Assembly: GCA_902550225.1 (NCBI GenBank)
Contig: CACCYL010000001.1
Span: 24,941 to 88,940, forward strand
Length of the DNA: 64,000 bases
Direction of reading: 5' to 3'
DNA from: an uncultured Alphaproteobacteria bacterium
GTDB taxonomy: Bacteria; Pseudomonadota; Alphaproteobacteria; Methylaequorales; Methylaequoraceae
The translations under genes and the position numbers were made by a program. Of this stretch, positions 14,580 to 40,140 are shown piece after piece. The notes under the pieces were generated by a model. The model was not told the origin of the DNA, did no database searches, and worked only from the letters and a program-made list of their open reading frames with translations. The number at the start of each line of letters is the position of its first letter. Position 1 is the stretch's first letter.

Positions 14580-15767
14580 CTATTTTAAATTTTCTAAGGA
14601 GTTATCAATATCTTCAATTATATCTTCTGGATCCTCAAGACCTACTGAGAGTCTTATTAGATTTTTTGTAATTCCGAGCTCTCTTTTTTCTTTTTCATTT
14701 AGTCTATGGTGAGTTGTTGTTTCAGGATGTGTTATTAAGGATTTTGTATCTCCGAGATTATTAGAAATGTCTATTAAAGACAATTTATTTAAAAATGAAA
14801 ATGATTTTTGTTTTTTTTCACTTGTTTTAGCATTAATTTCGAAGGAAACAACATTACCTCCACCTTTCATTTGTTTCATAGCTAATTTTATTTGAGGCGA
14901 ATCATTTAGAAAAGGATAATAAATTTTATTTATATATTTAGATTTTTGTAAATACTCGATAACTAAGTTTGTATTTTTCATTTGTTGTTTAATTCTTAGT
15001 TCAAGTGTCTCAAGGCCTTTTATTAATACCCAGGCATTAAAGGGACTCATGGATGGACCAGTATTTCTGATGAAGGGTTTTATAAATTCATCACAATGAC
15101 TTCTTTTACCTAGAATGGCTCCTCCCAAAACTCTTCCCTGACCATCGATATGCTTGGTTGCAGAATACATAACTATATCTGCGCCATGTTTAATCGGTTT
15201 TTGTAATAAGGGTGTAGCAAAAACATTGTCAACTACAACTAAAACTCCTTTTTTTTTTGCTAACTTTGAAACTTCTTCTATGTCGATAATTTCTAAACAT
15301 GGATTTGAAGGGGTTTCAAAAAAAATTAATGAAGTTCTTTTTTTTAGAGCTTTTTCCCAGGCATTAAGATCTTTTCCATCTATTAATTCAACCTCAATTC
15401 CAAACCTTGGAAGAATTTTTGTAATTATGTGATGACAACTTCCAAAAAGTGCTCTTCCTGCAACAACTCTGTCACCTTTTTTTAAAAATGACATAAAAAT
15501 GGTAAAAACTGCAGCCATACCAGTAGAGGTACACCAACAAACTTCTGCACCTTCAATGTCTGCTAATTTATCTTGAAGCATTTGAACAGTTGGATTTCCA
15601 AACCTGGAATACATAAATCTTTTTTTTTGTTCTTTAAATGCGTCTTCAGCTTCTTCAGCTGAATTGTAAACAAAGCCAGATGTTAAAAATAATGGCTCGC
15701 TAGTCTCCATGAACTCAGTTCTTTTTAAACCAGATCTAATTAACTTAGTCGAATTATCTTTTTTCAT
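14580..15767 (-). CDS. metZ: O-succinylhomoserine sulfhydrylase (Cys/Met-metabolism PLP enzyme)
   Basis: 395 aa. ..YSRFGNPTV.., ..DNVFATPLLQKP..GADIVMYSATKHIDGQGR.. (PLP-lysine region). The MetZ versus MetB distinction is by overall resemblance only. Confidence 0.75.
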   Translation of the reverse strand: MKKDNSTKLIRSGLKRTEFMETSEPLFLTSGFVYNSAEEAEDAFKEQKKRFMYSRFGNPTVQMLQDKLADIEGAEVCWCTSTGMAAVFTIFMSFLKKGDRVVAGRALFGSCHHIITKILPRFGIEVELIDGKDLNAWEKALKKRTSLIFFETPSNPCLEIIDIEEVSKLAKKKGVLVVVDNVFATPLLQKPIKHGADIVMYSATKHIDGQGRVLGGAILGKRSHCDEFIKPFIRNTGPSMSPFNAWVLIKGLETLELRIKQQMKNTNLVIEYLQKSKYINKIYYPFLNDSPQIKLAMKQMKGGGNVVSFEINAKTSEKKQKSFSFLNKLSLIDISNNLGDTKSLITHPETTTHHRLNEKEKRELGITKNLIRLSVGLEDPEDIIEDIDNSLENLK

Positions 15768-15817
15768 ATGATTTTTAGATTAACATTTCCTAAAATTTAT
15801 TTATAGTAGTGTAAATA

Positions 15818-17086
15818 ATGAGATCAATTTATTTTTTACATATATTTTTAATTTATTTTTGTTTTGGCTTTTTTATATTAGAAGCAAGAGAACTTTCGAT
15901 TAAACAAATTGAAGAAAGGAAACAATCTGATTTAGAGAGACTTAAAGAAAGAGAGAAAAGAGGAAATAAAAAGTTTTCAAAAGAAATAACATTGTCAACC
16001 AAACTCATATTTTTGAGTATGGAAAGAAAAACTCCTCCCGTGCTCTCAAATCTTGATCCTATTCTTGATGACGAGGGTTTTTACGGAGTAAAGCTTGCAA
16101 TTGAGGATAATTTAACAACTGGAAGATTTGTTGGTCACGATTATAAAGCAGAGTTTCATAGAATATTACTTAACGAGAATTTAAAAAGTGAATTTCAAAA
16201 ATTATTAAACCAAGGAAATAAATTTTTTATTGTTGATTTAAATGAAAAAGAATTGAAAACTCTCTTTGAAACATCAAATTCGGAAGAAATTGTCATTTTT
16301 AATGTTAGATCGAAAGCAGATTCTTTAAGGAATGAGAATTGTAAAAAAAATCTACTACATATCCCACCAAGTTACTCGATGCTCTCTGATGCTTTAACAC
16401 AATACCTTGTAAAAAAAAAATGGAATAAATGGTTTTTAGTTACTGGACCGGATGAAAATGATAGAAAATATGCAGATGCTCTAAAAAAATCAGCAAAAAA
16501 ATTTAACATTAAAATTAAAAAAGAAAAAGTTTGGGATTTTTCAGCAGATTTGAGACGTACAGCAGGTAAAGAAGTACCAATTTTTACAAAAGGAGAAAAA
16601 TATGATGTTTTGGTGGTTGCAGACGAAAAAGGTGAATTTGGTGAATATTTAACATATAGAACCTGGGATCCACGTCCAATTGTTGGAACGCAGGGACTTA
16701 CCCCAACGTCTTGGCATAGAACTCATGAACAATGGGGAGCAACACAAATGCAAAACAGATTCAGAAGAGAAAGTGGAAGATGGATGACAGAAGTTGATTA
16801 CCATGCATGGACTGCAGTTCGGTCAATTGGAGAAGCTATAACAAGAACAAGTAGCAATGATGTAAAAGATATAAGAAAATATTTGTTAGGAGAAAAATTT
16901 GGTCTTGGAGCTTATAAGGGAGTGAAAGTTTCATTCAGATCATGGAATGGGCAAATGAGACAGCCTATTTTATTGGCAGCGCCAAGATCAATGGTATCTG
17001 TTTCACCACAGGAAGGTTATATTCATCCAGATAGTGAATTAGATACTATGGGTAAAGATCAACCTGAATCTACTTGTAAATTTTAA
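15818..17086 (+). CDS. periplasmic substrate-binding protein of the PQQ-dehydrogenase-associated ABC system (PedA1/LutA-like)
   Basis: Signal peptide, about 400 aa branched-chain-amino-acid-type binding-protein-like body. First gene of an SBP / YVTN-propeller / ATPase / ABC-2-permease set, whose order matches the PQQ-ADH-associated ABC family as I recall it. Confidence 0.65.
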   Translation: MRSIYFLHIFLIYFCFGFFILEARELSIKQIEERKQSDLERLKEREKRGNKKFSKEITLSTKLIFLSMERKTPPVLSNLDPILDDEGFYGVKLAIEDNLTTGRFVGHDYKAEFHRILLNENLKSEFQKLLNQGNKFFIVDLNEKELKTLFETSNSEEIVIFNVRSKADSLRNENCKKNLLHIPPSYSMLSDALTQYLVKKKWNKWFLVTGPDENDRKYADALKKSAKKFNIKIKKEKVWDFSADLRRTAGKEVPIFTKGEKYDVLVVADEKGEFGEYLTYRTWDPRPIVGTQGLTPTSWHRTHEQWGATQMQNRFRRESGRWMTEVDYHAWTAVRSIGEAITRTSSNDVKDIRKYLLGEKFGLGAYKGVKVSFRSWNGQMRQPILLAAPRSMVSVSPQEGYIHPDSELDTMGKDQPESTCKF

Positions 17087-17107
17087 AATTTTTAATACAT
17101 TAGTATC

Positions 17108-18073
17108 ATGACACGATTTATTTTCTGCCTGTTCTTTATATTTGTTGCAAAAACCTCTTTCGCCAACCTTGCGTATATAACAAACGAAAAAGACAATACC
17201 GTAAGCGTTATCGATATAAAAAAAAATAAAGTAATCAGAACAGTTGAAGTTGGTCAAAGACCAAGAGGCATAATCATGTCTAAGGACGGAAAGCTTGTGC
17301 TTATTTGTGCATCCGATGATGACAGAGTTGAAGTGCGTGAGGCTAAAACACTTAAATTAAAATATTATTTACCCTCTGGACCTGACCCCGAGTTATTCAT
17401 TTTGTCACCCAATGACGAAACCCTCTATATAGCTAACGAGGATGACGCTATGGTTACTGTAGTTGATATGAATGACAAAATGATCATTGATGATATACCG
17501 GTTGGTGTAGAACCTGAAGGAATGGGCTTAACAAATGATGGCAAAGTTTTAGTGAATACCTCTGAGACCACAAATATGGCTCACTTCATCGATACAAGCA
17601 CTTTAGATATTTTAGAGAATGTCCTAGTTGATGCTAGACCTAGAGTAGCTATGTTTACTCCTAATGACAAAGAAGTCTGGGTGTCTGCTGAGATTGGAGG
17701 AACTGTTAAAGTCATTAACCCATCAACGAAAGAAGTTACCCACACAATAGGTTTCGAAATTCCAGGAGTTAATGAAGAGAGTATTCAACCTGTTGGCGTT
17801 CGACACACCAATGATGGTAAGTATACCTTTGTTGCATTGGGGCCTGCCAATAGAATTGCAGTTATTGATCAAAAAACTAAGGAACTAATTAAATATTTAC
17901 TCGTTGGTCAAAGAGTTTGGCAATTAGCCTTTACTCCTGATCAGAAAACTCTACTCACTACTAATGGAGTAAGTAATGATGTTTCCATAATTGATGTGGA
18001 GAAACTAAAAGTAAAAAAATCCATCAAAGTTGGCCGTTTTCCCTGGGGCGTGGTAATAAGTCCTGAGTCCTAG
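17108..18073 (+). CDS. PQQ-dependent-catabolism-associated YVTN beta-propeller protein (PedA2/LutB-like)
   Basis: Signal peptide followed by repeated ..YITNEKDNTVSVID.., ..LYIANEDDAMVTVVD.., ..TTNGVSNDVSIID.. blades (YVTN repeats). Confidence 0.8.
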   Translation: MTRFIFCLFFIFVAKTSFANLAYITNEKDNTVSVIDIKKNKVIRTVEVGQRPRGIIMSKDGKLVLICASDDDRVEVREAKTLKLKYYLPSGPDPELFILSPNDETLYIANEDDAMVTVVDMNDKMIIDDIPVGVEPEGMGLTNDGKVLVNTSETTNMAHFIDTSTLDILENVLVDARPRVAMFTPNDKEVWVSAEIGGTVKVINPSTKEVTHTIGFEIPGVNEESIQPVGVRHTNDGKYTFVALGPANRIAVIDQKTKELIKYLLVGQRVWQLAFTPDQKTLLTTNGVSNDVSIIDVEKLKVKKSIKVGRFPWGVVISPES

Positions 18074-18085
18074 AGGACCATGTAA

Positions 18086-18832
18086 TTGGTCATAAGTCCT
18101 ATGAGTTCTGCCCTTCAAATTAAAAATGTTTCGCACAAATTTGGAGAATTTAAAGCACTTAAAAATGTTAGTATCAATATCGATTCTGGAGATTTCACAG
18201 TTTTACTTGGTCTAAATGGAGCGGGAAAAACTACACTTTACTCACTTATAACTAGACTATATAACAATAATTCTGGCTCTATAAAAATCCATAATTTTGA
18301 TGTTAGAGAAAAATCTTCAGATGCTCTCAAAAATATTGGAGTAGTTTTTCAACAACCTACACTTGATTTGGATCTCAGTGTCGAAGAAAATTTACATTAC
18401 CATTCGTCATTGCATGGTTTAAGTTTCGCTGATGCCACAGAAAGAATTGAAGAAGAAATTCAGAGAATAGATTTAACTGAAAAATTAAAAAATAAAGTAC
18501 GTTCTCTTTCGGGAGGTCAACGGAGACGAGTTGAGATCGCACGATCGCTTCTCCATAAACCAAAATTACTGCTTCTAGACGAGCCTACAGTTGGATTAGA
18601 TATTGGATCAAGGCAAATGATTCTTAAACACGTAAAATCACTTTGTAAAAAAAGAGAACTTGCAGTTTTATGGGCAACACACTTAATTGATGAAATTGAT
18701 AAAGGTGAAAAAGTTGTAATTATTCATAAAGGAGAAATAGTCGAATCGGGCGATGTATTAAAAATAGTAAAAAAAACGAAACAAAAAAATATCAGAGATG
18801 CCTTCAATAAGCTTGTTGGAGTGGAAGTATGA
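18086..18832 (+). CDS. ABC transporter ATP-binding protein (PedB/LutE-like)
   Basis: Walker A GLNGAGKTT, signature LSGGQRRR, Walker B LLLLDEPT. TTG at 18086 has an AGAGGA SD 8 nt upstream. An alternative ATG lies at 18101. Confidence 0.88.
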   Translation: MVISPMSSALQIKNVSHKFGEFKALKNVSINIDSGDFTVLLGLNGAGKTTLYSLITRLYNNNSGSIKIHNFDVREKSSDALKNIGVVFQQPTLDLDLSVEENLHYHSSLHGLSFADATERIEEEIQRIDLTEKLKNKVRSLSGGQRRRVEIARSLLHKPKLLLLDEPTVGLDIGSRQMILKHVKSLCKKRELAVLWATHLIDEIDKGEKVVIIHKGEIVESGDVLKIVKKTKQKNIRDAFNKLVGVEV

Positions 18833-19632
18833 AACCGATTATATATTTGAGATGTTTTAAAGGAATTGTATTAAGAGAGGCATTAAGATTCTTTCACCAA
18901 AAAGAACGATTTTTTTCAGCACTCGTTAGACCTTTAGTTTGGTTAGGAATATTTGCTGCAGGTTTCAGGTCTGTCCTTGGTGTGGCAATAATTCCTCCCT
19001 ATGAAACATATATTCCCTATGAGGTTTATATTGCTCCTGGTCTTATTGCAATGATTCAATTATTCAATGGGATGCAAAGCTCATTATCCATGGTTTATGA
19101 CAGAGAAATGGGGAGTATGAAAACGATGTTAGTTAGTCCCATTCCAAGGTGGTTTTTGCTAATATCGAAATTACTTGCTGGTGTATTTGTTTCTATACTT
19201 CAAGTCTATGCTTTCCTTATAATTGCGTCTTTCTGGGAGATTATACCTCCGATTACAGGTTATTTTACAATTTTACCAGCGTTGATATTTACTGGCTTAA
19301 TGTTAGGCTCGTTGGGGATGTTTCTTTCCTCGGCTATTAAACAATTAGAAAATTTTGCCGGGGTTATGAATTTTGTTATTTTTCCTATGTTTTTTGCCTC
19401 GTCAGCATTGTATCCACTTTGGAAGATTGAAGAAACTAGTGAATGGTTATATTACGTATGTTTTTATAATCCATTTACATATGCAGTTGAATCTATAAGA
19501 TTTTCTTTGTATTCTCAATTTAATTTTGAGTATACTGCAGGTATAGTAATTTTTACTGTAATATTTCTTATTCTATCAATTTTGGGATATGATCCTGCAA
19601 GAGGCTCTCTACAAAAAAAAGGAGGAAGTTAA
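18829..19632 (+). CDS. ABC-2 type permease (PedC/LutF-like)
   Basis: 267 aa, six TM segments, ABC-2 fold pattern. 4-nt ATGA overlap with the ATPase gene. Confidence 0.8.
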   Translation: MKPIIYLRCFKGIVLREALRFFHQKERFFSALVRPLVWLGIFAAGFRSVLGVAIIPPYETYIPYEVYIAPGLIAMIQLFNGMQSSLSMVYDREMGSMKTMLVSPIPRWFLLISKLLAGVFVSILQVYAFLIIASFWEIIPPITGYFTILPALIFTGLMLGSLGMFLSSAIKQLENFAGVMNFVIFPMFFASSALYPLWKIEETSEWLYYVCFYNPFTYAVESIRFSLYSQFNFEYTAGIVIFTVIFLILSILGYDPARGSLQKKGGS

Positions 19633-19635
19633 TAT

Positions 19636-20055
19636 ATGAATTTTTTAATGATTATAATCTTTTTATTTATTCAATTGCCAAGCGAGTCAAATGCAGAGGG
19701 TGATTTATCAATTCGGTCAAAAAAGTTAGTCTTAAATTTGGGATCTGACAAAAGCGATTACGATATGTCACAAAAAATTTTTAATATGGAAACTGGCAAA
19801 GCTTATAGATTAGAAATTACAAGTATGGGATTTAAAGAATATGAATTAGAAGCAGAGGATTTTTTTAGAAATATTTGGATTCGTTCAATTGAAATAGATG
19901 GGATTGAGTTAGATGCACCCGTAATTAATGAAATAGAATTTGAGAGAGAGGGTGAAATTGAAATTAAGTTTGTACCAATTAGGCCTGGAGAATATGATTT
20001 TGAAATTGAAAGGTTACAAAGTAAAGGAATGGTTGGTAAATTTATTGTTAAATAA
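19636..20055 (+). CDS. small secreted, strongly acidic protein with a cupredoxin-like C-terminal strand but no Cu ligands
   Basis: Strong SD (AGGAGG) inside the permease 3' end, ATG 4 nt after the permease stop. Signal peptide ..LPSESNA/EG. Glu/Asp-rich mature part. The C-terminus PGEYDFEIERLQSKGMVGKFIVK aligns by eye with the pseudoazurin PGIYLYQCSPHAAMGMIGLVVV, with Cys->Ile and His->Leu. Confidence 0.55.
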   Translation: MNFLMIIIFLFIQLPSESNAEGDLSIRSKKLVLNLGSDKSDYDMSQKIFNMETGKAYRLEITSMGFKEYELEAEDFFRNIWIRSIEIDGIELDAPVINEIEFEREGEIEIKFVPIRPGEYDFEIERLQSKGMVGKFIVK

Positions 20056-20073
20056 TTTTATTTGGGAGAAAAT

Positions 20074-20727
20074 ATGATGCAAAAAATAATTTTTAGTTTC
20101 TTTATTTACTTTACTATTATGCTCACGACAGCCAGTGATTCCTTATCGATCGAACTCGATAAAACACCAAAAAAATGGCCGTGCGATCAGGTGTATAACC
20201 CTAAACTAAATCTTGGATCAATATGGCAAGGGCCTTCTATAGAGGAATCTTTGAAAGATTGGTGGAAGCATGATGATGTGATTGAATACGTTAATATATT
20301 ATCTGAACCAACGTTAACCGAGGAGAACGGAACAGTTGTAATAGAGGAGTTTGCAAAAAAATATACTTATTTAGGTGTTTTAAAAAAACCTGAACAAAGA
20401 GAAAAGTTAATCTTTCTTTTTGCGGGTCTTTATCAAAAAGCTAAGGACAGAAGAGAAAGACAGTATAAGGGGATCATTAAATTTGTTGATAGGCAAGAAA
20501 GTCTAAGAAAGGCAATTGGTGAATCGTCAAAGTTAATAAGAAAATATAGAAAAAATAAAATGGATAAAAAAAGTAAAAAATATATTAATGCGAATTCCCA
20601 ATTAGAATGGAATACACGAGTTTTTGATCAGAGAACAAGATTAACGGAATATGTTTGTGAAGAACCAGTATTCAATACGCAAAGACTAGGATATCAAGCT
20701 AGAAAAATTCTATCTTATATCCAATAA
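20074..20727 (+). CDS. secreted or membrane-anchored hypothetical protein
   Basis: GGGAGA SD 5 nt before the ATG at 20074 (the ORF-track TTG at 20062 is less likely). N-terminal hydrophobic segment, K/R-rich helical C-terminal half. I recognise no family. Confidence 0.5.
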   Translation: MMQKIIFSFFIYFTIMLTTASDSLSIELDKTPKKWPCDQVYNPKLNLGSIWQGPSIEESLKDWWKHDDVIEYVNILSEPTLTEENGTVVIEEFAKKYTYLGVLKKPEQREKLIFLFAGLYQKAKDRRERQYKGIIKFVDRQESLRKAIGESSKLIRKYRKNKMDKKSKKYINANSQLEWNTRVFDQRTRLTEYVCEEPVFNTQRLGYQARKILSYIQ

Positions 20728-20812
20728 TTTCCCTTTAAATCATTACTTTGTTAATGAATTCAAAATGAATAAAAAAATCAGGTTTCTTTAATAAACAATC
20801 ACTATATATATC

Positions 20813-20831
20813 ATAGCCCAAGGTGGGCTAT
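20813..20831 (+). promoter_or_regulatory. perfect 8-bp stem-loop in the pqqA leader
   Basis: ATAGCCCA-agg-TGGGCTAT, immediately after a TATATATA -10-like tract and about 30 nt before the pqqA ATG. It could be a 5' stabilising hairpin or an operator. Confidence 0.4.
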
Positions 20832-20861
20832 ATTAATCTAAACCATAAAAAGGAGTAAATT

Positions 20862-20939
20862 ATGGCTTGGACAAAACCAATGATTTCTGAGATCTCTGTA
20901 GGTCTAGAAATCAATTCTTACGCTTGCGCTGAGAAGTAA
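20862..20939 (+). CDS. pqqA: PQQ precursor peptide PqqA (25 aa; absent from the ORF track)
   Basis: My own translation gives MAWTKPMISEISVGLEINSYACAEK*. It contains the conserved W-x-x-P and the E-x3-Y (E-I-N-S-Y) cross-link pair. AAGGAG SD 8 nt upstream. Directly precedes pqqB. Confidence 0.88.
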   Translation: MAWTKPMISEISVGLEINSYACAEK

Positions 20940-20958
20940 TCTCTGCAATAGCTATTGC

Positions 20959-20986
20959 CCCCTTAAGTCTAATTTGATTTAAGGGG
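20959..20986 (+). terminator. stem-loop between pqqA and pqqB (partial terminator or processing/stability element)
   Basis: CCCCTTAA-N12-TTAAGGGG, 20 nt after the pqqA stop. No strong T-run follows, so it is more likely an attenuating or stabilising hairpin than a full terminator. Confidence 0.45.
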
Positions 20987-21007
20987 TGCATTTAAAGTAG
21001 TATAATT

Positions 21008-21940
21008 ATGTTGAAAGTTTTGATTTTAGGTTCAGCTGCAGGAGGTGGTTCTCCACAATGGAACTGTAACAGTTCAGTGAGTAAAAAGGTCAGGGATGGA
21101 TTACCTGGAACTTCACCGAGAACTCAATCATCCATCGCAGTTACTTCAAATGACGAGGATTGGGTTTTGTTTAATGCTTCACCTGATTTAGGTTCACAAA
21201 TTTTAAATAATAAACAAATGCATCCGAAAAGAGATCTTAGGCATAGCCCTATCAAAGGTGTTGTTCTGACCAATGGCGATGTCGATCATGTTGCAGGTTT
21301 ATTATCACTGAGAGAAAGGCAAAATTTGTCTGTTTATGCTCACAAAAGAGTACATTCAGTTTTAAAAGAAAACTCGATTTTTAATGTTTTAAACCCAGAC
21401 TATGTAGATAGAAGAAATTTAGAAATGAATAAAAAATTCGAGGTTAAAAGTAAGGAAGGAAAAGATCTCAATATTGAAATAGAAGCATTTGAAGTCCCAG
21501 GAAAAATTGCACTTTGGCTAGAAGATGAATCAAAAGGGAAAAATTTTGGTACTGAAGAAGGAGATACAATTGGTTTAAAGATATTTTCATCGCAAAACAA
21601 TAAATCGTTTTTTTACATTCCAGCATGTGCAGACATGACAACTGATTTAGCTGAAAGAATTAAAGATTCAGATGTGGTGTTATTTGATGGAACTTTATGG
21701 GAAAATGACGAAATGGCTACCAGTAAGGTTGGTGAAAAAACTGGACAAAGAATGGGTCATATGAATAATTCTGGAAAAAATGGTTCAATACAAGCATTTA
21801 AAGATTTAGGGGTAAAAAGAAAAATTTTTATTCATATAAATACAACCAATCCAATACTTTTGGAAGATTCAAAAGAAAGAAAGATTGTTGAAGAAAATGG
21901 TTGGGAAGTAAGTTATGATGGAATGGAGATTGAAATATGA
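21008..21940 (+). CDS. pqqB: PQQ biosynthesis protein B (metallo-beta-lactamase fold)
   Basis: MLKVLILGSAAGGGSPQWNCN.. and ..LTNGDVDHVAGLL.. typical of PqqB. Position after pqqA. Confidence 0.92.
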   Translation: MLKVLILGSAAGGGSPQWNCNSSVSKKVRDGLPGTSPRTQSSIAVTSNDEDWVLFNASPDLGSQILNNKQMHPKRDLRHSPIKGVVLTNGDVDHVAGLLSLRERQNLSVYAHKRVHSVLKENSIFNVLNPDYVDRRNLEMNKKFEVKSKEGKDLNIEIEAFEVPGKIALWLEDESKGKNFGTEEGDTIGLKIFSSQNNKSFFYIPACADMTTDLAERIKDSDVVLFDGTLWENDEMATSKVGEKTGQRMGHMNNSGKNGSIQAFKDLGVKRKIFIHINTTNPILLEDSKERKIVEENGWEVSYDGMEIEI

Positions 21941-22722
21941 AAAGTATTGCTGAAGAAAAACTAAAAAACCAAATACTCATGACTAAAAATGAGTTTGAGC
22001 AGCGCCTTAGAAATATCGGTGCTGAACGTTACCACGATAATTGTAGATTTCATCATCTTCTTCATAGTGGAAAATTAAATAAAGGACAAGTACAGGCATG
22101 GGCGATCAATAGATATTATTATCAAATCAATATTTCTATTAAAGACTCTGCATTAATGTCCAGAATTAAAGATCCTGACCTCAGGAGAATTTGGATTAAA
22201 AGAATATTGGATCACGATGGAAGAAAAGGGGATGAAGGAGGTATTGAACGATGGTATAAATTAACTGATGGTCTTGATTTAGATCGAGATTATGTAAAAT
22301 CAACAGATGGTATTCTGCCAGCTACCAAATTTGCCGTTGATGCCTACGTGACTTTTGTAAGGGAGAAGCCAATTCTTGAAGGAGTAACATCTTCGCTAAC
22401 AGAGCTTTTTGCTCCTAAGATTCATAAAGAGCGAATTGTAGGCATGCTTGAAAACTATGATTTTATTAATGATATTACCATGGCTTATTTTAAAAAGAGA
22501 GTCGATCAGGCAACTGATGATGCCGATTTTGTCTTAAACTATGCACTAAAAAATGCGAAAACAAGAAAAGAACAAGATTCTGTTTGCGATGCTTTAAAAT
22601 TTAAAACTGATGTCCTATGGGTTATGCAGGACGCCCTATATCACTCTTATATCAATGGACATGTTCCACCAGGAGCTTTTATGCCAGAGGATTTTAATGA
22701 AAGATATACTGAAAATAAATGA
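21937..22722 (+). CDS. pqqC: pyrroloquinoline-quinone synthase
   Basis: ..RYHDNCRFHHLLHSGKLNKGQVQAWAINRYYYQ.. is the PqqC signature. ATGA overlap with pqqB. Confidence 0.92.
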   Translation: MKSIAEEKLKNQILMTKNEFEQRLRNIGAERYHDNCRFHHLLHSGKLNKGQVQAWAINRYYYQINISIKDSALMSRIKDPDLRRIWIKRILDHDGRKGDEGGIERWYKLTDGLDLDRDYVKSTDGILPATKFAVDAYVTFVREKPILEGVTSSLTELFAPKIHKERIVGMLENYDFINDITMAYFKKRVDQATDDADFVLNYALKNAKTRKEQDSVCDALKFKTDVLWVMQDALYHSYINGHVPPGAFMPEDFNERYTENK

Positions 22723-22984
22723 GAGCGTTAAACCAAAATTCCCAAAACATGTTAGATTTAGACATAATAAAGCAAGAGACGAATGGGTTATTTTGGCCCC
22801 TGAACGGCTTGTTAAACTTGATCCAGTCGCTGTTGAGATTCTCAAACTTGTCGATGGTAAAGTTTCTGTTGGTGAAATCTCAACTGACTTGTCAAAAAAG
22901 TTTAATGCACCTAAAGAGGTTATAATGAAAGATGTAATTGAAATGTTGCAAGAACTATCAGACAAAGGATTTATTGAAGAATGA
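22697..22984 (+). CDS. pqqD: PQQ biosynthesis peptide chaperone PqqD
   Basis: ..PKFPKHVRFRHNKARDEWVILAPERLVKLDPVAVEILKLVDG.. is PqqD-like. I chose the internal ATG at 22697 (95 aa, typical size). The ORF-track start at 22610 lies deep inside pqqC. Confidence 0.85.
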   Translation: MKDILKINESVKPKFPKHVRFRHNKARDEWVILAPERLVKLDPVAVEILKLVDGKVSVGEISTDLSKKFNAPKEVIMKDVIEMLQELSDKGFIEE

Positions 22985-24138
22985 AAAGCGATGAATTAAA
23001 ATCAGGTTCAAAACAGTTAAAGACTGCCTCTGAACACGGTATACAAGCGCCTTTGGCACTTCTAGCCGAACTCTCTCATAGATGTCCTCTGCAATGTCCT
23101 TATTGCTCAAACCCAGTCCAGCTTGAGAAAAAAACTGGTGAGTTAACAACAGATGAGTGGAAATCAGTTATTGACCAGGCTGTTGATATGGGCATGCATC
23201 AAATACATCTTTCAGGTGGAGAACCAACAGTCAGGCATGATCTTGAGGATATTGTTGAACATTGTACAGTCAAAGGTTTATATACGAATCTTATTACCTC
23301 TGGAGTTTTATTAAATCCTGATAGACTGAAAAAACTTGAGAAACTTGGTTTAGAGCATGTACAACTTTCCTTTCAAGATACTGACAACGAAAATGCAGAT
23401 AGAATTGGCGGCTATAAAGGAGGGCATGCAAAAAAACTTGAAGTAGCAAAATGGGTAAGAGAGGTTGAATTACCGTTAACTTGCAATTGTGTTGTTCATA
23501 GGCAAAATATAGATAATCTTGAAAATTTTATTCAAATGGCCCTTGACCTTGATGCTGAAAGGGTTGAGATTGCTCAGGTTCAATACTACGGTTGGGCCTT
23601 AAAAAATAGAGCAGCATTTATACCTACGCCCGAACAATTAGACCATGCCACTGAAATAGTTGAAAAAGCTAGAGTTGATCTCAAAGGAAAATTAGTTATT
23701 GATTACGTAATTCCCGATTATTACGCAAAGCATCCTAAAAATTGTATGGGAGGTTGGGGAAGAAGGTTTTTAAACATGAATCCAAAAGGAGAGGTATTAC
23801 CGTGTCACGCGGCAGAGACTATTCCCCACCTTAAGTTTGACAATGTTAGAGAAAAAAGCCTTAAATGGATTTGGGAGAACTCAGAGGCATTTAACTTATA
23901 CAGAGGTACCGATTGGATGCCTGATCCCTGTAAATCTTGTGATAGAAAAGAAATTGATTGGGGAGGTTGTAGATGCCAGGCGATGGCCCTAACTGGTGAC
24001 GCTAAAAATACTGATCCAGCGTGTTCTATATCACCTTTACACAAAGAAATATTTGCAATGGCAGCTGAAGAAGCTAGGCGTGCTCCACCAGAATTTATTT
24101 ACAGACGCTACGGCGTTAGATTTAATTCACCTATTTAA
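22981..24138 (+). CDS. pqqE: PqqA peptide cyclase (radical SAM/SPASM)
   Basis: CPLQCPYCSNP (CxxxCxxC) radical-SAM motif plus a C-terminal Cys-rich SPASM region (CKSCDRKEIDWGGCRCQA). ATGA overlap with pqqD. Confidence 0.93.
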   Translation: MKSDELKSGSKQLKTASEHGIQAPLALLAELSHRCPLQCPYCSNPVQLEKKTGELTTDEWKSVIDQAVDMGMHQIHLSGGEPTVRHDLEDIVEHCTVKGLYTNLITSGVLLNPDRLKKLEKLGLEHVQLSFQDTDNENADRIGGYKGGHAKKLEVAKWVREVELPLTCNCVVHRQNIDNLENFIQMALDLDAERVEIAQVQYYGWALKNRAAFIPTPEQLDHATEIVEKARVDLKGKLVIDYVIPDYYAKHPKNCMGGWGRRFLNMNPKGEVLPCHAAETIPHLKFDNVREKSLKWIWENSEAFNLYRGTDWMPDPCKSCDRKEIDWGGCRCQAMALTGDAKNTDPACSISPLHKEIFAMAAEEARRAPPEFIYRRYGVRFNSPI

Positions 24139-24235: not shown

Positions 24236-24667
24236 ATGAAAAAACTTTTTCTAACTTTATTTTTTGTAATGTTTTCAGCAAATTCTTTTGCCGCAGATGT
24301 TACAATAGAAATGCTAAATAAAAATAAAGAAACAAAAAAAAGAATGGTTTATAGTCAAGAACTTGTTAAGATTGACGTTGGTCAGTCCATTGAATGGGTT
24401 CCTACAGCTAAAGGACATAACGTAGAAATGCTAGCTGGTCCCGAAGGATATGAATTACCAAAAAAAACAAAATTAAACGACCCTGTGACCATAACTTTTG
24501 ACAAACCAGGTATTTACCTTTACCAATGTTCTCCTCACGCAGCAATGGGAATGATTGGTTTGGTTGTAGTTGGTGGCGACACCTCTAATATGGATGCTAT
24601 AAAAGCTTTGAAAGTTACAGGTGGAAAGTCTAAGAAAAAAAGAGACAAACTTTTAAGTGAAATTTAG
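24236..24667 (+). CDS. pseudoazurin (type-1 blue copper protein)
   Basis: Signal peptide. ..IEWVPTAKGHNVE.. (His ligand) and ..YQCSPHAAMGMIGLVVVG (C-x2-H-x4-M ligand set), as in pseudoazurins. Confidence 0.85.
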   Translation: MKKLFLTLFFVMFSANSFAADVTIEMLNKNKETKKRMVYSQELVKIDVGQSIEWVPTAKGHNVEMLAGPEGYELPKKTKLNDPVTITFDKPGIYLYQCSPHAAMGMIGLVVVGGDTSNMDAIKALKVTGGKSKKKRDKLLSEI

Positions 24668-24732: not shown

Positions 24733-25641
24733 CTATTCAGACAGGTTAACAGATACCCACCTTTCCAGCGATGGTCCAGGTTTAAATACATCCGGGTGTA
24801 TAATTTCGCATAAAATTTTTATACTTTCCAGTAATCGTGGTCCTGGTCTGTTAAAAAACTTGTTACCATCTACTACAAATACTTCTTTCTGTTTAAGTAA
24901 TGAATGAAAATTAAGATTTGACTTTTTAATTTCAAGTTTTGTTCTTCTTATATCAAATCCGCACGGCATAAATATAACAATGTCAAATTTATTTGATGAA
25001 AGTTCACTTGTAGAAATAAATTTTGAATTCTTTCCAGATTCAATTAAAACATTTTCTGCATTGCTTATACTCAAAATTTCAGGAATCCAATTACCAGCAA
25101 TCATTAGGGGCTCTATCCATTCAATACATAAAACCTTTTTCGTATTGGTAAAGTTTAACTTTTTCTTAATAACGTTAATTTCCTTGTTAATTATTTCAAT
25201 AACCTTTGAAGCTTCGTTATAGGCATTGAGTTTTTCTCCAACAAATAAAATATCGTTGATGACGTCTTTAAAATAATTAGGTTTTAAATCTATTAAGATT
25301 GGCTTTTTTTTGAGCCAGAGATTTAAACATTTTTTTACATCTTCAATTGAAACTGCACATACCGAACAATGAGATTGAGTTATAATGACATCTGGATTAA
25401 TTTTTTGGAGAAGTTCTGAATCAACCTCATATACAGACAGTCCTTTTTCTAAAATGCTTTGAATATTTTGGTTAATATTATAAGAAGTTTCATTGACATC
25501 AACTTTACTTTTTGTAAGTTTAGGAAGTTTTTCAATACCTTGTGGATAATCGCATTCGTGCGAAATACCAACCAGGTTATTAATTAGCCCTAGAGAACAA
25601 ACAATTTCAGTGGCACTAGGGATAAGACTTACTATCTTCAT
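24733..25641 (-). CDS. TroA/BtuF-like (cobalamin / Fe-siderophore type) binding protein without a signal peptide
   Basis: MKIVSLIPSATEIVCSLGL..VGISHECDYP.. is the class-8 periplasmic-binding-protein N-terminal pattern. There is no hydrophobic leader. Confidence 0.6.
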   Translation of the reverse strand: MKIVSLIPSATEIVCSLGLINNLVGISHECDYPQGIEKLPKLTKSKVDVNETSYNINQNIQSILEKGLSVYEVDSELLQKINPDVIITQSHCSVCAVSIEDVKKCLNLWLKKKPILIDLKPNYFKDVINDILFVGEKLNAYNEASKVIEIINKEINVIKKKLNFTNTKKVLCIEWIEPLMIAGNWIPEILSISNAENVLIESGKNSKFISTSELSSNKFDIVIFMPCGFDIRRTKLEIKKSNLNFHSLLKQKEVFVVDGNKFFNRPGPRLLESIKILCEIIHPDVFKPGPSLERWVSVNLSE

Positions 25642-25709: not shown

Positions 25710-26591
25710 CTATTGGACTGGAGCTCTGCCTTTTATCAACGCGTCTGTGGTGCTGTCAGATTTTTTTCTTTTTCCAGGTCTTAGGCTTAAGATCGGAATG
25801 TTGTGTTTTACAAGAATTTCGTCGATTTCTTTCTGATTTTCCTTTATAAATTTATTTAGTTTTTTCTTCCAATCAGTTTCACCATCTCTTACACCCATTG
25901 TTGTGTAATAATCCATCCTACCCCAACCCTGATCGGTAGTTTCTAGGGGAATAAATTCATATTTGCTTTTGTCATAACCCTTTTTTTCAAGATAGTATAC
26001 AGCAATGGGTCCAGACATAAATACGATGTCGACTAAACCATCAATTAGATCTTCTATCATTGACTCCCCAATCACCGCTTTTCTAGGGTCAAATGTGAGG
26101 TTGTAAGGCCTTACCCTACCCATAAGATTATATCTTTGTAGAACAAAAGTAGGAGGGGTGCCAGCTTGAACTCCAATACTTAGATCAGCTAACTGAGGAT
26201 GATTAGGTCTATCAACTTCTATTCCATTTTCTTTGAGAAAAATCATCCCATATGACCATCTCATGTAAGGTATGGTATTTAGCACCAGATCGTTACCAGC
26301 AGTAATTCCAATTAAAATGTCACACTTTTTCTTGTTAAGTGTGTTTCTAACATATCCAATTACCTGAGGAAAGTATTCATAGACTACTGGAATATTTAGC
26401 TTTTCACCGAGCAAATCGGCTATAGCGTTTTCGAAACCTTCCCCTTTTTCATTTGAAAAAGGGAGGTTTGAGGGGTCTGCGCAAACTCGTAAATTTTCCG
26501 TATCAACAGCTTCAATAGCAGATTCTCTAGATTTTACATCCATTGTGAGCAACATTACTAGAGATAATGTAAGTATGAAGACTCGTTGCAT
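25710..26591 (-). CDS. xoxJ: XoxJ/MoxJ-type quinoprotein-dehydrogenase-associated periplasmic binding protein
   Basis: Signal peptide. LRVCADPSNLPFSNEKGEGFENAIADLL.. is the family-3 SBP pattern seen in MxaJ/XoxJ. Downstream of xoxF-xoxG. Confidence 0.8.
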   Translation of the reverse strand: MQRVFILTLSLVMLLTMDVKSRESAIEAVDTENLRVCADPSNLPFSNEKGEGFENAIADLLGEKLNIPVVYEYFPQVIGYVRNTLNKKKCDILIGITAGNDLVLNTIPYMRWSYGMIFLKENGIEVDRPNHPQLADLSIGVQAGTPPTFVLQRYNLMGRVRPYNLTFDPRKAVIGESMIEDLIDGLVDIVFMSGPIAVYYLEKKGYDKSKYEFIPLETTDQGWGRMDYYTTMGVRDGETDWKKKLNKFIKENQKEIDEILVKHNIPILSLRPGKRKKSDSTTDALIKGRAPVQ

Positions 26592-26614: not shown

Positions 26615-27229
26615 TTAGTCAACTTCTTTAAATTTTGGAAGCTTTGGTAGTCTAACTCCACGTCTTATTTTACCGTCAGCTCTAGCTTTAACATAGCGAA
26701 ATATGTCTTCAACGTGTGGAGCAACATTTGTATTTGCACCGTAAGCAGGCATCACATTACCTTTTTGTGCACCTTCATCTTCGCCTCTTCCATTCATAAT
26801 TACGTTAAAGAAATCGTCATATGATAAGCCTTGTGTAACCGATACCATTAAAGAAGGAGCGTAAGTACTTCCCATTGCATCAGGCCCGTGACATACGTGG
26901 CATTCGGCATGGTAAGCTCTCCATCCTTTATAAGTTGCAAAATCCATCCAACCATATTGCATTTCAACCAAGCTATCATCACCTCTGCACTCTTCTAAGT
27001 CATCTTCTGATACCATATCAACTGCTTTGCCTTTACAATTAATTTGGATTAGATTCAGAGGAGTACCATCTTCTTTTAATCTGTCGCCCTTACCATATTT
27101 AATAATGTAAGTTGGGTTGTCATCTTCATCGAAAGCAGGTTCAACTGCTTCTGGAGTTGGGATCGCTTTAGCACTAAATCCTACGACTAGTGATGCAACT
27201 AAAGCAAATTTATTAAATTTAAAGTTCAT
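26615..27229 (-). CDS. xoxG: cytochrome c (cL-type, XoxG)
   Basis: Signal peptide, single haem motif CHVCHG, about 200 aa. Located between xoxF and xoxJ. Confidence 0.8.
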   Translation of the reverse strand: MNFKFNKFALVASLVVGFSAKAIPTPEAVEPAFDEDDNPTYIIKYGKGDRLKEDGTPLNLIQINCKGKAVDMVSEDDLEECRGDDSLVEMQYGWMDFATYKGWRAYHAECHVCHGPDAMGSTYAPSLMVSVTQGLSYDDFFNVIMNGRGEDEGAQKGNVMPAYGANTNVAPHVEDIFRYVKARADGKIRRGVRLPKLPKFKEVD

Positions 27230-27373: not shown

Positions 27374-29206
27374 CTACGGTAAAGCGAAGACAGTTAATAC
27401 GCCACCTAATGCAGTGTGGTTACTTAGTGCAGAGTATGCACCAACAGCACCTAAACCTGCAGTTGGGTCAGTAAGACCAGCAGCAAGACCGATTCCAGCC
27501 CAACCACCAACACCTGATAAGATACCTACATATTGCTTACCTTTATGAGAGTAAGCCATGAAGTTACCGATAATACCAGAAGGTGTTTTGAACGAGAATA
27601 GTTCTTTACCAGTTTTACTTTCAACAGCTTTAGCGTATCCTTCTAACGTACCGTAGAATGTAATTCCACCAGCTGTAGCTAATGCACCACTCCATACAGA
27701 GAAAGGCTCAGGGTTAGACCATGCGATCTTACCTTTGTCAGCATCCCATGCAATGAAGTTACCTAGGTGTGTTCCGCCTGGAGCTGGGTACATAGATAAT
27801 GTAGCACCAACATAAGCGTTACCAGCAACGTAGTCTACTTTGAATGGTTCGTAGTCCATGCAAACGTGGTTTGTTGGAACCATGAACAATCCAGATAGTC
27901 TATCGTAAGCAGCAGGCTGTTGGTCTTTAGTACCTAGAGCCGCTGGGCAGATGTTAGTAGTGTTAACATCTTCACCTTGGTGTGCAGTTGAATATCTGTC
28001 TACCACTTGTGGACGACCTGTTTTCATGTCAACGTGAGTTGCCCAGTTCACAGCTGGATCATACTTCTCAGCAACTAATAGCTCACCAGAAGCTCTATCC
28101 ATTGTGTAAGCAAAACCGTTTCTGTCAAAGTGTACAAGTGCTTGACGGTTTTTACCTTTTACTTTCATGTCAACAAGAATCATCTCGTTAACACCGTCGT
28201 AATCCCACTCATCGTAAGGAGTCATTTGATATAACCATTTAGCCATACCGTTGTCTGGGTTACGAGCCATAATCGTCATAGACCATTTGTTGTCACCAGG
28301 ACGAACAACTGGGTTCCATGTTGATGGGTTACCTGTACCGTAGTACAAAGTGTTTAATTTAGAGTCATAACCGTAGAAACCCCAAATTGAACCACCACCA
28401 ATTTTCCATGCATCACCAGGCCAAGTTTTCAATGAAGAATCTTTACCAATTGGTTTTAACATAGAAGTAGTTTTGTTTGGATCAACTAGCATGTCCTTAT
28501 CTGGACCCATGCTGTAAGCTCTCCAAAGTCTCTTACCACTGTTGATATCGTACTGTGTCCAGTTACATCTCACACCGAATTCAGCACCAGAACAACCAAC
28601 ACCTACCATGTCTTTGATGATGAATGGTTGACCTGAACCAGTAGAAGCAGAGACACCATATTTACCAGTACCAGAGTGTAGGTTAGTTGTAATCCACTTC
28701 TCTTTACCAGTTTTAGCGTCTAGCGCAATTACTGAAGTATCAGCAGCATGTAGAACGATAGTTCCATTAGGGTGATAGTTAACACCACGGTTTACGTTAT
28801 CGCAGCACATAACTGAAATAACTCTATCCATAGTTTCACCACCTGGATACTTACCACCTTTTACAGGGTTGTATTTCCACATGATTCTTTGGTTATCATT
28901 TAGATCTAAAGCGTACACTATGTTTGGAATTGCAGTGTGAACATACATTACATCACCAATTACTAGTGGACCACCTTCGTGTCCTCTAAGTACACCAGTA
29001 GAAAAAGTCCAAGCGACTTTTAAGCTACCAACGTTACTTTTATTGATTTGATCAAGGTTTGAGAAACGGTGACCAGCGTAATCGCCAGACTGTTGTACCC
29101 ATTGTCCTGGATCTTTCATCATTTTTTCAAGCTTTGAGTTAGCACTTACAGCAAATGGAAGAGCTAAAGCAGCTGAAGCAATGATGCTTTTTTTCAAAAT
29201 ACTCAT
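27374..29206 (-). CDS. xoxF: lanthanide-dependent PQQ methanol/alcohol dehydrogenase, XoxF type
   Basis: Eight-bladed PQQ-ADH signatures, vicinal-disulfide CC ([10 protein letters not shown]), and active site ..[11 protein letters not shown].. with D-Y-D (MxaF has D-x-A). Start chosen at MSILKKSII.. (AGGAGA SD, signal peptide). The ORF-track N-terminal 34 aa are rejected. Confidence 0.92.
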
Positions 29207-29311
29207 AAAGTATTTCTCCTTTATTACGATTAATATTTGGGCGACTGCCCGGTTATTGATTGGAATCAAAAACAAACAAAAATCGTTAGTTATTTGATTT
29301 CCTCCCACCTC

Positions 29312-29499: not shown

Positions 29500-29649
29500 T
29501 AAATTAACTTTTGTTCAGAATTCAAAAAAATTAAGTGAAATCAATTACTTACACACATAAAAAATTTGGTCATTTTATTGAACTGCATTTTACAACGATT
29601 TATGCAAAAAAATTCTTAAATATCTACTCAATATGTGTATATTAATCTT

Positions 29650-30453
29650 ATGAATGCAATAAATAATAAGTTAATTTTTTTATTTTTATTATTTTCAATT
29701 ACTTTTGTATTTGCAAATGATAAAAAACCTGAACCCGTGACGTGGGAACAAAACGTAAAAGGGTTATTATATGATGATGGTGTTAAAATTAGGGATGGTT
29801 CAGACCTTATGGTTCTAGAAACACCCTACAGAGCTCTAGACGCAGCAATTGTTCCAATTTCAATAAACTTTCTAAAAGATCAACTACCTACTGATTATAT
29901 AAAACATCTAACAATTGTTATTGATGAAAATCCATCACCTATAGTCGGTAAATTTGAATTTAGTCCTAAAGTCGGTAATGCAAGTTTTTCAACAAGAGTT
30001 CGCATTGACAAATATACATATGTTAGAGCCATTGCTGAAAATAACAAAGGAGAAAAGTATATGGTTTCTAATTTTGTTAAAGCTGCTGGAGGTTGTTCAG
30101 CACCAAGTCTTGCTGACATGGATTCTGTTATGGCTCGATTAGGAAAAATGAAAATGAAATTTATAAAAACAAGTGATGCGACTGATAAATTAAATAAAGC
30201 TAAATTTTTAATAAGTCATCCTAACTTTTCTGGGTTACAGTTCAACCAACTGACTCGCTCGGAGATACCGGCACATTTCATAAATTTTGTTAGAATAGAG
30301 CAGGATGGAGACTTAATTTTTGAAGCTTCACCCGATATCTCTCTATCAGAAGATCCCTCTTTTACCTTTAATTATTTAAATACTGGCGGTTCACTGACAG
30401 TAAAAGTCAATGACAGTGAAGGACAAAGTTTTTCAAAAGAATTTTCTTTTTAA
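29650..30453 (+). CDS. quinoprotein-dehydrogenase-associated SoxYZ-like fusion carrier protein
   Basis: Signal peptide. The SoxY-like half ends in ..FVKAAGGCSAPS (GGC carrier-cysteine motif) and is followed by a SoxZ-like half. Divergent from xoxF. The start at 29650 (ATG) versus 29635 (GTG) is unresolved. Confidence 0.7.
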   Translation: MNAINNKLIFLFLLFSITFVFANDKKPEPVTWEQNVKGLLYDDGVKIRDGSDLMVLETPYRALDAAIVPISINFLKDQLPTDYIKHLTIVIDENPSPIVGKFEFSPKVGNASFSTRVRIDKYTYVRAIAENNKGEKYMVSNFVKAAGGCSAPSLADMDSVMARLGKMKMKFIKTSDATDKLNKAKFLISHPNFSGLQFNQLTRSEIPAHFINFVRIEQDGDLIFEASPDISLSEDPSFTFNYLNTGGSLTVKVNDSEGQSFSKEFSF

Positions 30454-30473: not shown

Positions 30474-30815
30474 TTAAAAACACTCTAATTCAGAAGCTGC
30501 TTGAGCTCTGAACAGCTTTTGCATCCTATCTTTTGAAAGTCCAACACTTTTAAAAGCTTCTTCTCTAGGACTGTTTCCTTCCCAGAGTCTTGCTATGGCT
30601 TCAGCTTGCGCGTATTCTTTAAAAGTAATCCTTTTAGCAATTTCATCAATTGCACATGAACACTTTGCCATAAAATCTCTATTCGAGGCATTTGAAGACA
30701 TGCATGCAAACACAAATTCAGACCGTGCTAGCGTTGGGAAATCATTTGAATGAGATTTATTAAACAGTAATGTTGCTAGGATTAAACTGATTGAAACAAA
30801 TAATTTATTTATCAT
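30474..30815 (-). CDS. small secreted 4-Cys protein, unknown function
   Basis: Signal peptide (..LLFNKSHS/ND). Cys residues in FACMSS, AKCSCAIDE and C-terminal ELECF. ATGA overlap with the upstream gene. Confidence 0.5.
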   Translation of the reverse strand: MINKLFVSISLILATLLFNKSHSNDFPTLARSEFVFACMSSNASNRDFMAKCSCAIDEIAKRITFKEYAQAEAIARLWEGNSPREEAFKSVGLSKDRMQKLFRAQAASELECF

Positions 30816-31645: not shown

Positions 31646-31697
31646 TACGTTATATTTATGATCTATAATTGTATGATTTTCAATAAAGATTTTACTT

Positions 31698-32192: not shown

Positions 32193-32211
32193 CTCCATTT
32201 CAAAAAACATT

Positions 32212-35280: not shown

Positions 35281-35290
35281 GTATAAAAAA

Positions 35291-37952: not shown

Positions 37953-37964
37953 AAGTTAAATATA

Positions 37965-38651: not shown

Positions 38652-38746
38652 GTCCCTAGAATTTACTTACCTTTAAAAAAAGAGAGCAACCTTGAAAGCC
38701 ATCCGCCACCATTAGCTTTATCTGATGGCTTCATGTTGGATGAATC

Positions 38747-39256: not shown

Positions 39257-39298
39257 ATTTCCTCCTTTTAGAGATTACTATAAATTCAATATAAATAA

Positions 39299-40138: not shown

Positions 40139-40140
40139 TT

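Follow-up and report, generated by a model that had tools for sequence, protein, structure and literature searches.

The closest described relative of the system analyzed here is the lut cluster of Methylorubrum extorquens AM1 (META1p1778-1787); like the related pedA1A2BC genes of Pseudomonas putida KT2440, it has been tied genetically to lanthanide uptake (PMC6839425, PMC7391723). In P. putida, genetic evidence shows that growth at nanomolar lanthanide depends on pedA1A2BC, whose deletion increases about 100-fold the La needed for PedH-dependent growth, from which the authors inferred the loss of a La-specific importer (PMC6839425). The M. extorquens AM1 map comprises lutA (substrate-binding protein), lutB (exported), lutC, lutD, lutE (ATPase), lutF (permease), lutG (exported) and lutH (TonB receptor) (PMC7391723). 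LutD is the landiscernin LanD (META1p1781), a disulfide-linked bundle of three helices with a mass of 6.8 kDa; its gene overlaps that of the ATPase (PMC11551332). M. extorquens mutants in lutE and lutF fail to grow on methanol with La and those in lutA, lutB and lutG grow at 0.02-0.03 per hour, as opposed to 0.16; loss of lutG takes the rate from 0.16 to 0.03 per hour, and loss of lutC produces a small growth defect (PMC7391723). Cytoplasmic uptake of rare earths in M. extorquens has also been reported to depend on this transporter (Wehrmann et al.). Here we analyze a six-gene block at 15818-20727 of a 64-kb stretch of alphaproteobacterial DNA (contig CACCYL010000001.1; the whole stretch is hereafter called the window). 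With a probability of about 0.78, we read this block as a compact lut-type lanthanide uptake system consisting of LutA, LutB, LutE, LutF and members of the LutC (ORF5) and LutG (ORF6) families.

The transporter core and the layout of the block

The six genes all lie on the + strand and are closely packed, with intergenic gaps of 21, 12 (or 27 with ATG 18101 as the ATPase start), -4, 3 and 18 nt. The first encodes a LutA/PedA1-type periplasmic substrate-binding protein of 422 aa (15818..17086; TIGR03863, Pfam Peripla_BP_6), and the second an exported YVTN beta-propeller of the LutB/PedA2 type, with 321 aa (17108..18073; TIGR03866). The gene for a LutE/PedB-type ABC ATPase follows (18086..18832; TIGR03864). 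Its open reading frame (ORF) opens at TTG 18086, and the likely start is ATG 18101, giving the 243 aa that are also found in independent gene calls. The fourth product is a LutF/PedC-type ABC-2 permease of 267 aa (18829..19632; TIGR03861), with a 4-nt overlap between its gene and the ATPase stop.

All four proteins exceed the curated NCBIfam cut-offs of these models: 476.4 bits against 413.6 for the substrate-binding protein, 488.1 against 287.3 for the beta-propeller, 331.9 against 302.25 for the ATPase and 399.7 against 241.35 for the permease. The best generic exporter models, drrA for the ATPase (193.8) and drrB for the permease (120.2), are both below their own cut-offs, and the models of the PQQ-dehydrogenase system score best. 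The original prediction, made from the sequence of the window, had seen in these genes the PQQ-dehydrogenase-associated ABC system in its known order, and had named a better fit to unrelated ABC-2 exporters as the finding that would speak against it; the scores bear out the former and not the latter. By sequence, the core is a PedA1A2BC/LutABEF-type system. It has all four NCBIfam families and their order (A1, A2, B, C) in common with P. putida, and shares with the M. extorquens cluster the families of substrate-binding protein, YVTN propeller, ATPase and ABC-2 permease.

ORF5 (19636..20055) and ORF6 (20074..20727) complete the block. The ORF5 ATG is 3 nt past the permease stop, with a Shine-Dalgarno-like AGGAGG at 19620-19625, and ORF6 starts 18 nt past the ORF5 stop, with GGGAGA at 20064-20069. 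The ribosome-binding sites, leader peptides and gaps of 3 and 18 nt predicted for both hence stand as given. A scan of 15600-21100 revealed no terminator-like site, hence none ahead of the pqqA gene that follows ORF6, and promoter-like sites were no more frequent than in shuffled sequence. The boundaries of the transcription unit are therefore drawn from spacing only, and it is from spacing that 15818-20727 can be regarded as one operon-like block.

The position of the last two genes sets the block apart from both described systems. The order in the window is A-B-E-F-C-G, as opposed to A-B-C-D-E-F-G in AM1, whereas pedC of P. putida is followed by PP_2666, which encodes a rhodanese-domain protein (PMC12997753) and not a LutG-family member. 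No LutC-family gene has been described in P. putida, where the partner enzyme is PedH, of the ethanol type, instead of XoxF5.

The LutC- and LutG-position families

Several lines of evidence indicate that ORF5 and ORF6 are genuine genes with exported products under purifying selection. Independent gene calls on 1.2-1.5 Mb reef-seawater metagenome contigs yield the same proteins, a 139-aa precursor for ORF5 and 217 aa for ORF6. Each begins with an N-terminal hydrophobic leader that varies among relatives, in contrast to a mature part that hardly changes. Compared with a relative (L114) that is 76% identical at the DNA level, dN/dS is 0.107 for ORF5 and 0.105 for ORF6. Both had been described as falling outside known families, and neither does reach the threshold of any Pfam or NCBIfam model.

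Genome loci of the ORF6 family were collected with a degenerate DNA motif for WPCxQ-x11-WxGP, and metagenome loci of the ORF5 family with a degenerate motif requiring the LutC subtype with a 10-residue spacer; both samples are incomplete and comprise at least 120 loci. A true ORF6-family member is present in 109 of the 120 listed genome loci, 107 of them being strong. Among the listed loci with enough sequence, a PedC/LutF-type permease gene lies directly upstream of the ORF6 homolog in 64 of 91, and in most of the remaining ORF6-family loci the gene adjoins xoxJ-xoxG-xoxF or comes after the propeller gene or pqqE. In 98 of the 107 listed strong loci, one or more lut, xox or pqq genes are found next to it. 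The hosts include Methylobacterium, Methylorubrum, Bradyrhizobium, Paracoccus, Hyphomicrobium, Xanthobacter, Ancylobacter, Azospirillum and a few Gammaproteobacteria. An ORF5 homolog is found in 26 of the 56 ORF6-anchored loci that show both propeller and ATPase genes, normally between those two. In the ORF5-anchored metagenome scan, all 120 listed matches are true family members, and lut neighbours were seen in every one of the 31 loci with more than 1.2 kb on both sides. Both families are thus associated near-exclusively with this transporter or with xox/pqq genes. The prediction would have been contradicted by homologs residing mostly in genomes without xoxF and the ABC system; they occur almost only beside that system or xoxF/pqq genes.

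The tie to the published cluster comes from Methylobacterium and Methylorubrum. In Methylobacterium sp. J-068 (L006), the genes for the substrate-binding protein and the propeller are followed by an ORF5 homolog (3520-3975), an 80-aa ORF (4019-4261), the ATPase and permease genes, an ORF6 homolog and a LutH-like TonB receptor. The 80-aa reading frame runs into the ATPase gene and has landiscernin (PDB 9c8w) as a match at E 1e-20, so that the ORF5 homolog occupies the lutC position, in the interval between propeller and LanD; the same placement was observed in 34 metagenome loci. Methylorubrum podarium (L102) has LanD, ATPase, permease and ORF6 homolog in succession, and in M. longum (L033) the gene after the ORF6 homolog encodes a TonB-dependent receptor that has both Plug and barrel domains. 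Within the 120 listed genome loci, LanD appears only in Methylobacterium, Methylorubrum and an unclassified Methylobacteriaceae metagenome-assembled genome (L062). From sequence and synteny in these genera, we infer that ORF5 and ORF6 correspond to the genes at the lutC and lutG positions, respectively, of the lut cluster. Through these sister taxa, the block thus shares with M. extorquens the exported proteins of both positions.

The original prediction had presented the two genes as unassigned secreted proteins extending the operon and had proposed that they could supply a missing periplasmic metal-handling function. In its strongest form, this would make ORF5 and ORF6 lineage-specific additions that replace the lanmodulin or TonB-receptor side of metal handling in a streamlined genome. 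The gene content of the window seems to invite such a view: as predicted, neither a LutH-like TonB receptor nor a lanmodulin-like EF-hand motif was found in the 64 kb, none of the five window ORFs of at least 550 aa is a TonB receptor, and a phmmer search for LanD against all window ORFs of at least 35 aa returned no match at E up to 10. Both proteins are moreover exported and lack a curated family, and the placement of both genes after the permease is unusual. Nonetheless, the two families are widespread beyond this lineage and coexist with LanD and a LutH-type receptor in Methylobacterium/Methylorubrum clusters. They therefore predate streamlining, are not specific to streamlined genomes and cannot be read as substitutes for LanD or the TonB receptor, which renders the replacement scenario quite improbable. 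As judged from sequence and synteny, ORF5 and ORF6 are not an extension peculiar to this genome, and the unusual feature of the block would be its gene order, A-B-E-F-C-G. Instead, they look like core parts of the transporter that streamlining has kept.

A second arrangement was noted in five metagenome loci (L126, L163, L218, L229 and L238), in which a divergent ATPase gene precedes the genes for a LutC-family protein, propeller, substrate-binding protein and permease. Matches to the core proteins of the window are much lower in these loci (~210-300 bits), which may represent a distinct subtype. The LutC score is unusually high (~207-218 bits) in L126, L163 and L200.

The mature ORF5 protein has about 119 aa and 13.9 kDa, is acidic (pI 4.6) and is predicted to be beta-rich. 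It contains no Cys and no His. Across 129 non-redundant family members, Y57, E68, E91, E101, G106 and G118 (precursor numbering) are conserved in 100%, and position 103 is always acidic, with Asp in 96% and Glu in SAR11-type and several other members. The family spans a pI range of 4.3-6.9. A run of at least four Asp/Glu residues between leader and domain was found in 58 of 120 members; such poly-Asp/Glu tracts occur for instance in the LutC-family genes of L040, L087, L092, L104, L143, L151, L180 and L197, and the window copy has none. Structural predictions, which had been proposed as a check, were informative for ORF6 and not for ORF5, and revealed no match to a known structure for either protein. 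The AlphaFold2 model of ORF5, built on a 21-sequence alignment, is beta-rich and unreliable (pLDDT 53). Foldseek with this poor model returned weak Ig-like matches alone (E >=0.012), which we regard as uninformative, and profile searches of the family against PDB sequences gave nothing significant. The fold of ORF5 is probably a beta-sandwich.

Some NCBI records call ORF5 homologs 'copper-binding protein', and it could be argued that ORF5 is a blue-copper (cupredoxin) electron carrier for XoxF/XoxG that stands outside the transporter. ORF5 has some likeness to the cupredoxin fold of plastocyanin and pseudoazurin: it is predicted beta-rich, is similar in size and carries a C-terminal strand motif (...KGMxGK(F/I)xVK) that resembles the ...GAGMVGKIIV of plastocyanin. 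Weak matches to Cupredoxin_1 were obtained for 5 of 22 family members (best E 4.6e-4), and further sub-threshold matches involve plastocyanin C-termini and domain 2 of nitrite reductase. However, a type-1 copper site is impossible in a mature protein with neither Cys nor His, as the ligands (His, Cys, His, Met) are missing, and the 'copper-binding' label is therefore wrong in the blue-copper sense. The family-invariant residues are Glu, Gly and aromatics instead of Cu ligands, and all Pfam and NCBIfam matches are sub-threshold (14.9 bits for ORF5 against a Cupredoxin_1 gathering score of 27). Profile-profile comparison lends no support, since hhalign against the pseudoazurin encoded in the window itself gives a probability of 3.7%. 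Furthermore, genes of the ORF5 family sit inside the transporter operon in all lineages, and a genuine pseudoazurin-like gene is available at 24236-24667. A role of ORF5 as a copper protein thus appears extremely unlikely. Its identification with LanD was also considered and rejected: LanD is a 6.8-kDa three-helix bundle, and a separate LanD gene adjoins the ORF5 homolog in Methylobacterium.

The ORF6 profile retrieved 394 clusters at 50% identity from a library of 1.84 billion proteins, mostly full-length and of ~200-215 aa. In 61 diverse members, Trp35, Cys37, Trp51, Gly53, Cys195 and Pro198 are invariant, and none of the 61 has a Pfam match. The AlphaFold2 model is good (pLDDT 81) and all-alpha, and in it a small N-terminal part precedes a pair of long antiparallel helices (106-160 and 168-216). 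One invariant cysteine lies in the N-terminal part of the model and the other in the helical part, a placement that would be compatible with a clamp disulfide. Foldseek against the PDB returned generic coiled-coil and BAR-domain matches alone (E >=0.29), and profile searches of the family against PDB sequences gave nothing significant. Some UniRef homologs of ORF6 carry a DUF1311/LprI_N label, which we rejected: PF07007 has no match at E up to 10 in the three labelled proteins or in ORF6 itself, and none in the 61 family members. In some high-GC relatives, LutG-family proteins have a long linker; P0257, P0259, P0262 and P0248, of 250-365 aa, consist of a hydrophobic N-terminus, a low-complexity linker rich in Ala, Pro and Glu, and the conserved domain. 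This architecture suggests that the N-terminally extended forms are tethered to the inner membrane.

LanD (PDB 9c8w) and lanmodulin are the small periplasmic proteins of the lut cluster that are known to bind lanthanides. ORF5 and ORF6 resemble them in being small, exported and encoded inside the transporter cluster or next to it. Like LanD, where the disulfide has been solved, ORF6 is helical and has two Cys. In contrast to the 6.8-kDa three-helix bundle of LanD, however, ORF5 is a beta-rich protein of 13.9 kDa and ORF6 a predicted helical hairpin of 23 kDa.

Direction of transport and possible roles of the accessory proteins

ABC-2 permeases are typically exporters, and the transport direction and substrate of the window system are taken by analogy from genetics in other organisms. 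These points count against our reading, and others call for caution regarding the two accessory proteins. Orthology to AM1 LutC and LutG has been inferred via sister taxa, and the searchable literature holds no metal-binding or interaction data for either. In addition, charge is not conserved in the LutG family (pI 4.7-10.7), which weighs against a simple electrostatic metal role for ORF6, and the model of ORF5 is too poor (pLDDT 53) to place its invariant glutamates in space.

The most direct competitor to lanthanide import is that the whole ABC system, ORF5 and ORF6 included, serves another step of quinoprotein biogenesis, for instance by exporting PQQ or a chelator into the periplasm. The ABC-2 family of the permease and its DrrB-like second-best matches are in keeping with this idea, as are the lack of a terminator ahead of pqqA and the position of the operon right beside pqqABCDE, which recurs in a few further loci (L022, L036, L082). 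The original names of the models, too, mention merely a 'PQQ-dependent alcohol dehydrogenase system'. The genetic data tell a different story: the ~100-fold higher La requirement of the P. putida pedA1A2BC deletion (PMC6839425), the failure of M. extorquens lutE and lutF mutants on methanol with La (PMC7391723) and the reported need for the transporter in cytoplasmic rare-earth uptake by M. extorquens (Wehrmann et al.) all point to import. A dedicated substrate-binding protein is likewise typical of importers, as argued for P. putida (PMC6839425). An export function hence seems unlikely, if less so than the other alternatives discussed here, and lanthanide uptake remains our preferred reading.

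Under lanthanide uptake, ORF5 and ORF6 would act as periplasmic accessory parts of the importer, and not as replacements for lanmodulin or the TonB receptor. ORF6, as a putative two-Cys helical hairpin, would most likely work at the periplasmic face of LutEF. ORF5, as a predicted acidic beta-sandwich, would be the better candidate for a carboxylate-based site at which a lanthanide or lanthanide chelate is handed off. Three invariant glutamates, a fourth position that is always acidic and, in about half of the relatives, a poly-Asp tract are the features that may equip it for such a role.

A more ambitious proposal can be put forward as a single joint claim, which we consider speculative and on balance doubtful. 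It holds that in this marine lineage lutABEFCG might be the complete machinery for moving lanthanides from periplasm to cytoplasm, dispensing with a dedicated TonB receptor, lanmodulin and LanD. The LutC-family protein would in that case bind lanthanides or lanthanide chelates in a novel manner, through a copper-less cupredoxin-like beta-sandwich in which the three invariant Glu and a fourth acidic residue make up the site, and the LutG-family protein would be a periplasmic adaptor without which an ABC-2 permease of the exporter type could not import.

The methanol-oxidation island and its significance

The original prediction overlooked much of what surrounds the block, namely a XoxF-type dehydrogenase (27374-29308), a pqq operon 135 nt downstream, xoxG- and xoxJ-like genes and a tetrahydromethanopterin (H4MPT) pathway. 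As in M. extorquens, the transporter genes are linked to a XoxF-type methanol dehydrogenase and to pqq genes, but the window operon is joined directly to pqqABCDE. Judging from the gene content, the lut operon heads a lanthanide-type methanol-oxidation island.

On the + strand, pqqA (20862..20939) starts 135 nt past ORF6 and, by direct reading of the sequence, encodes a 25-aa peptide, MAWTKPMISEISVGLEINSYACAEK, with the E-x3-Y motif. It is followed by pqqB (21008-21940; TIGR02108, 392.7 bits) and, according to the Pfam domains of precomputed gene calls, by pqqC (21937-22722; TENA_THI-4), pqqD (22697-22984; PqqD) and pqqE (22981-24138; Radical_SAM/SPASM), all on the same strand. A perfect inverted repeat, CCCCTTAA...TTAAGGGG, lies at ~20950-20990, between the pqqA stop and pqqB. 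It has no following T-run and was therefore not flagged by the terminator scan. A stem-loop is often seen after pqqA, and the repeat resembles such an element.

Beyond pqqE, the + strand carries a gene for a pseudoazurin-like blue copper protein with an intact ligand region (24236..24667; Pfam Copper-bind 56.2 bits), which scores 99.4 bits with TIGR02375, not reaching the cut-off of 109.85. The - strand encodes a XoxJ-like periplasmic binding protein (25710..26591; TIGR03871 239.8 bits, cut-off 212.15), a XoxG-like c-type cytochrome (26615..27229; Pfam Cytochrome_CBB3) and a 644-aa XoxF5-like lanthanide-type PQQ methanol dehydrogenase (27374..29308; TIGR03075 669.1 bits, cut-off 480). The best PDB match of the dehydrogenase is M. 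extorquens XoxF1 (6oc5, 875 bits), and its DEWDYDG aligns to DEWDFDG, so that the D-x-D is present. This extra lanthanide-coordinating Asp is the signature of lanthanide enzymes. The cytochrome does not reach the TIGR03874 cut-off (123.8 bits against 161.75) and is ~60 aa longer N-terminally than the model. Because of this sub-threshold, extended cytochrome and of the pseudoazurin-like gene nearby, the electron path from XoxF may differ from that of model organisms. The + strand further encodes a quinoprotein-dehydrogenase-associated SoxYZ-like carrier (29635..30453; TIGR04557 235.8 bits, cut-off 140).

Two other genes in this region drew our attention. Between the pseudoazurin and xoxJ-like genes, the - strand encodes a homolog of Peripla_BP_2-type (BtuF/FecB-like) binding proteins (24733-25641) that begins MKIVSLIPSATEIV... 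and has no N-terminal leader, and which is therefore probably cytoplasmic. A 300-aa ORF (30812-31714, - strand), convergent with the SoxYZ-like carrier gene, has no Pfam or NCBIfam match; a hydrophobic segment resembling a leader (...LSVILLVFFCLLSNLSFAADSD...) lies in its interior, and the mature N-terminus is acidic.

The stretch 31698-41016 contains tetrahydromethanopterin/methanofuran-type cofactor genes (FolB-, MfnE-, AfpA-, dihydropteroate-synthase-, MfnF- and MptN-like) together with fae, the gene for formaldehyde-activating enzyme (38747-39256; TIGR03126 255 bits). The cofactor genes and fae complete a methanol-to-formate island in a very small low-GC genome. Public records label the homologs as Pelagibacteraceae, Rickettsiales or Alphaproteobacteria bacterium, and the lineage is abundant in reef-seawater metagenome assemblies. 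The window also encodes a squalene-hopene cyclase (52650-54560, - strand) with both Pfam domains at E <1e-110. Such an enzyme is unexpected for a Pelagibacter-like streamlined genome and may help to place the lineage.

The host is thus a marine alphaproteobacterium of low GC (~31% G+C in the window) with contigs of ~1.5 Mb, as opposed to the plant-associated M. extorquens with its genome of 6-7 Mb, and the 64 kb lack the LanD (lutD), LutH TonB receptor and lanmodulin of the latter. Since no TonB receptor, LanD or lanmodulin-like gene is present there, the window operon constitutes a minimal lutABEFCG set, a natural gene set for reconstitution. LutC and LutG are named genes that have no biochemistry, family model (Pfam, NCBIfam) or structure to their name, even though lanthanide-dependent growth of M. 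extorquens is severely impaired when lutG is lost. That a very small marine genome keeps both beside LutABEF marks them as core parts of the transporter. The signatures of the LutC family (Y57, E68, E91, E101, acidic 103, G106 and G118) and of the LutG family (W35-P-C37, W51-x-G53 and C195-E-x-P198), together with the strict co-occurrence pattern, could seed family models and guide mutagenesis.

From an ecological standpoint, lanthanide methanol dehydrogenases dominate marine methanol-oxidation transcripts, and the most highly expressed marine xoxF5 genes belong to alphaproteobacterial genomes formerly called Rickettsiales, in a survey that did not analyze the transporter (PMC11996626). The lanthanide uptake systems of ocean methanol oxidizers are undescribed, which lends the window operon its ecological interest. 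Should the joint proposal for lutABEFCG put forward above be true, and should the host be one of the alphaproteobacteria whose xoxF5 transcripts dominate in the ocean, this small operon would be a main route by which organisms take up lanthanides in surface seawater.

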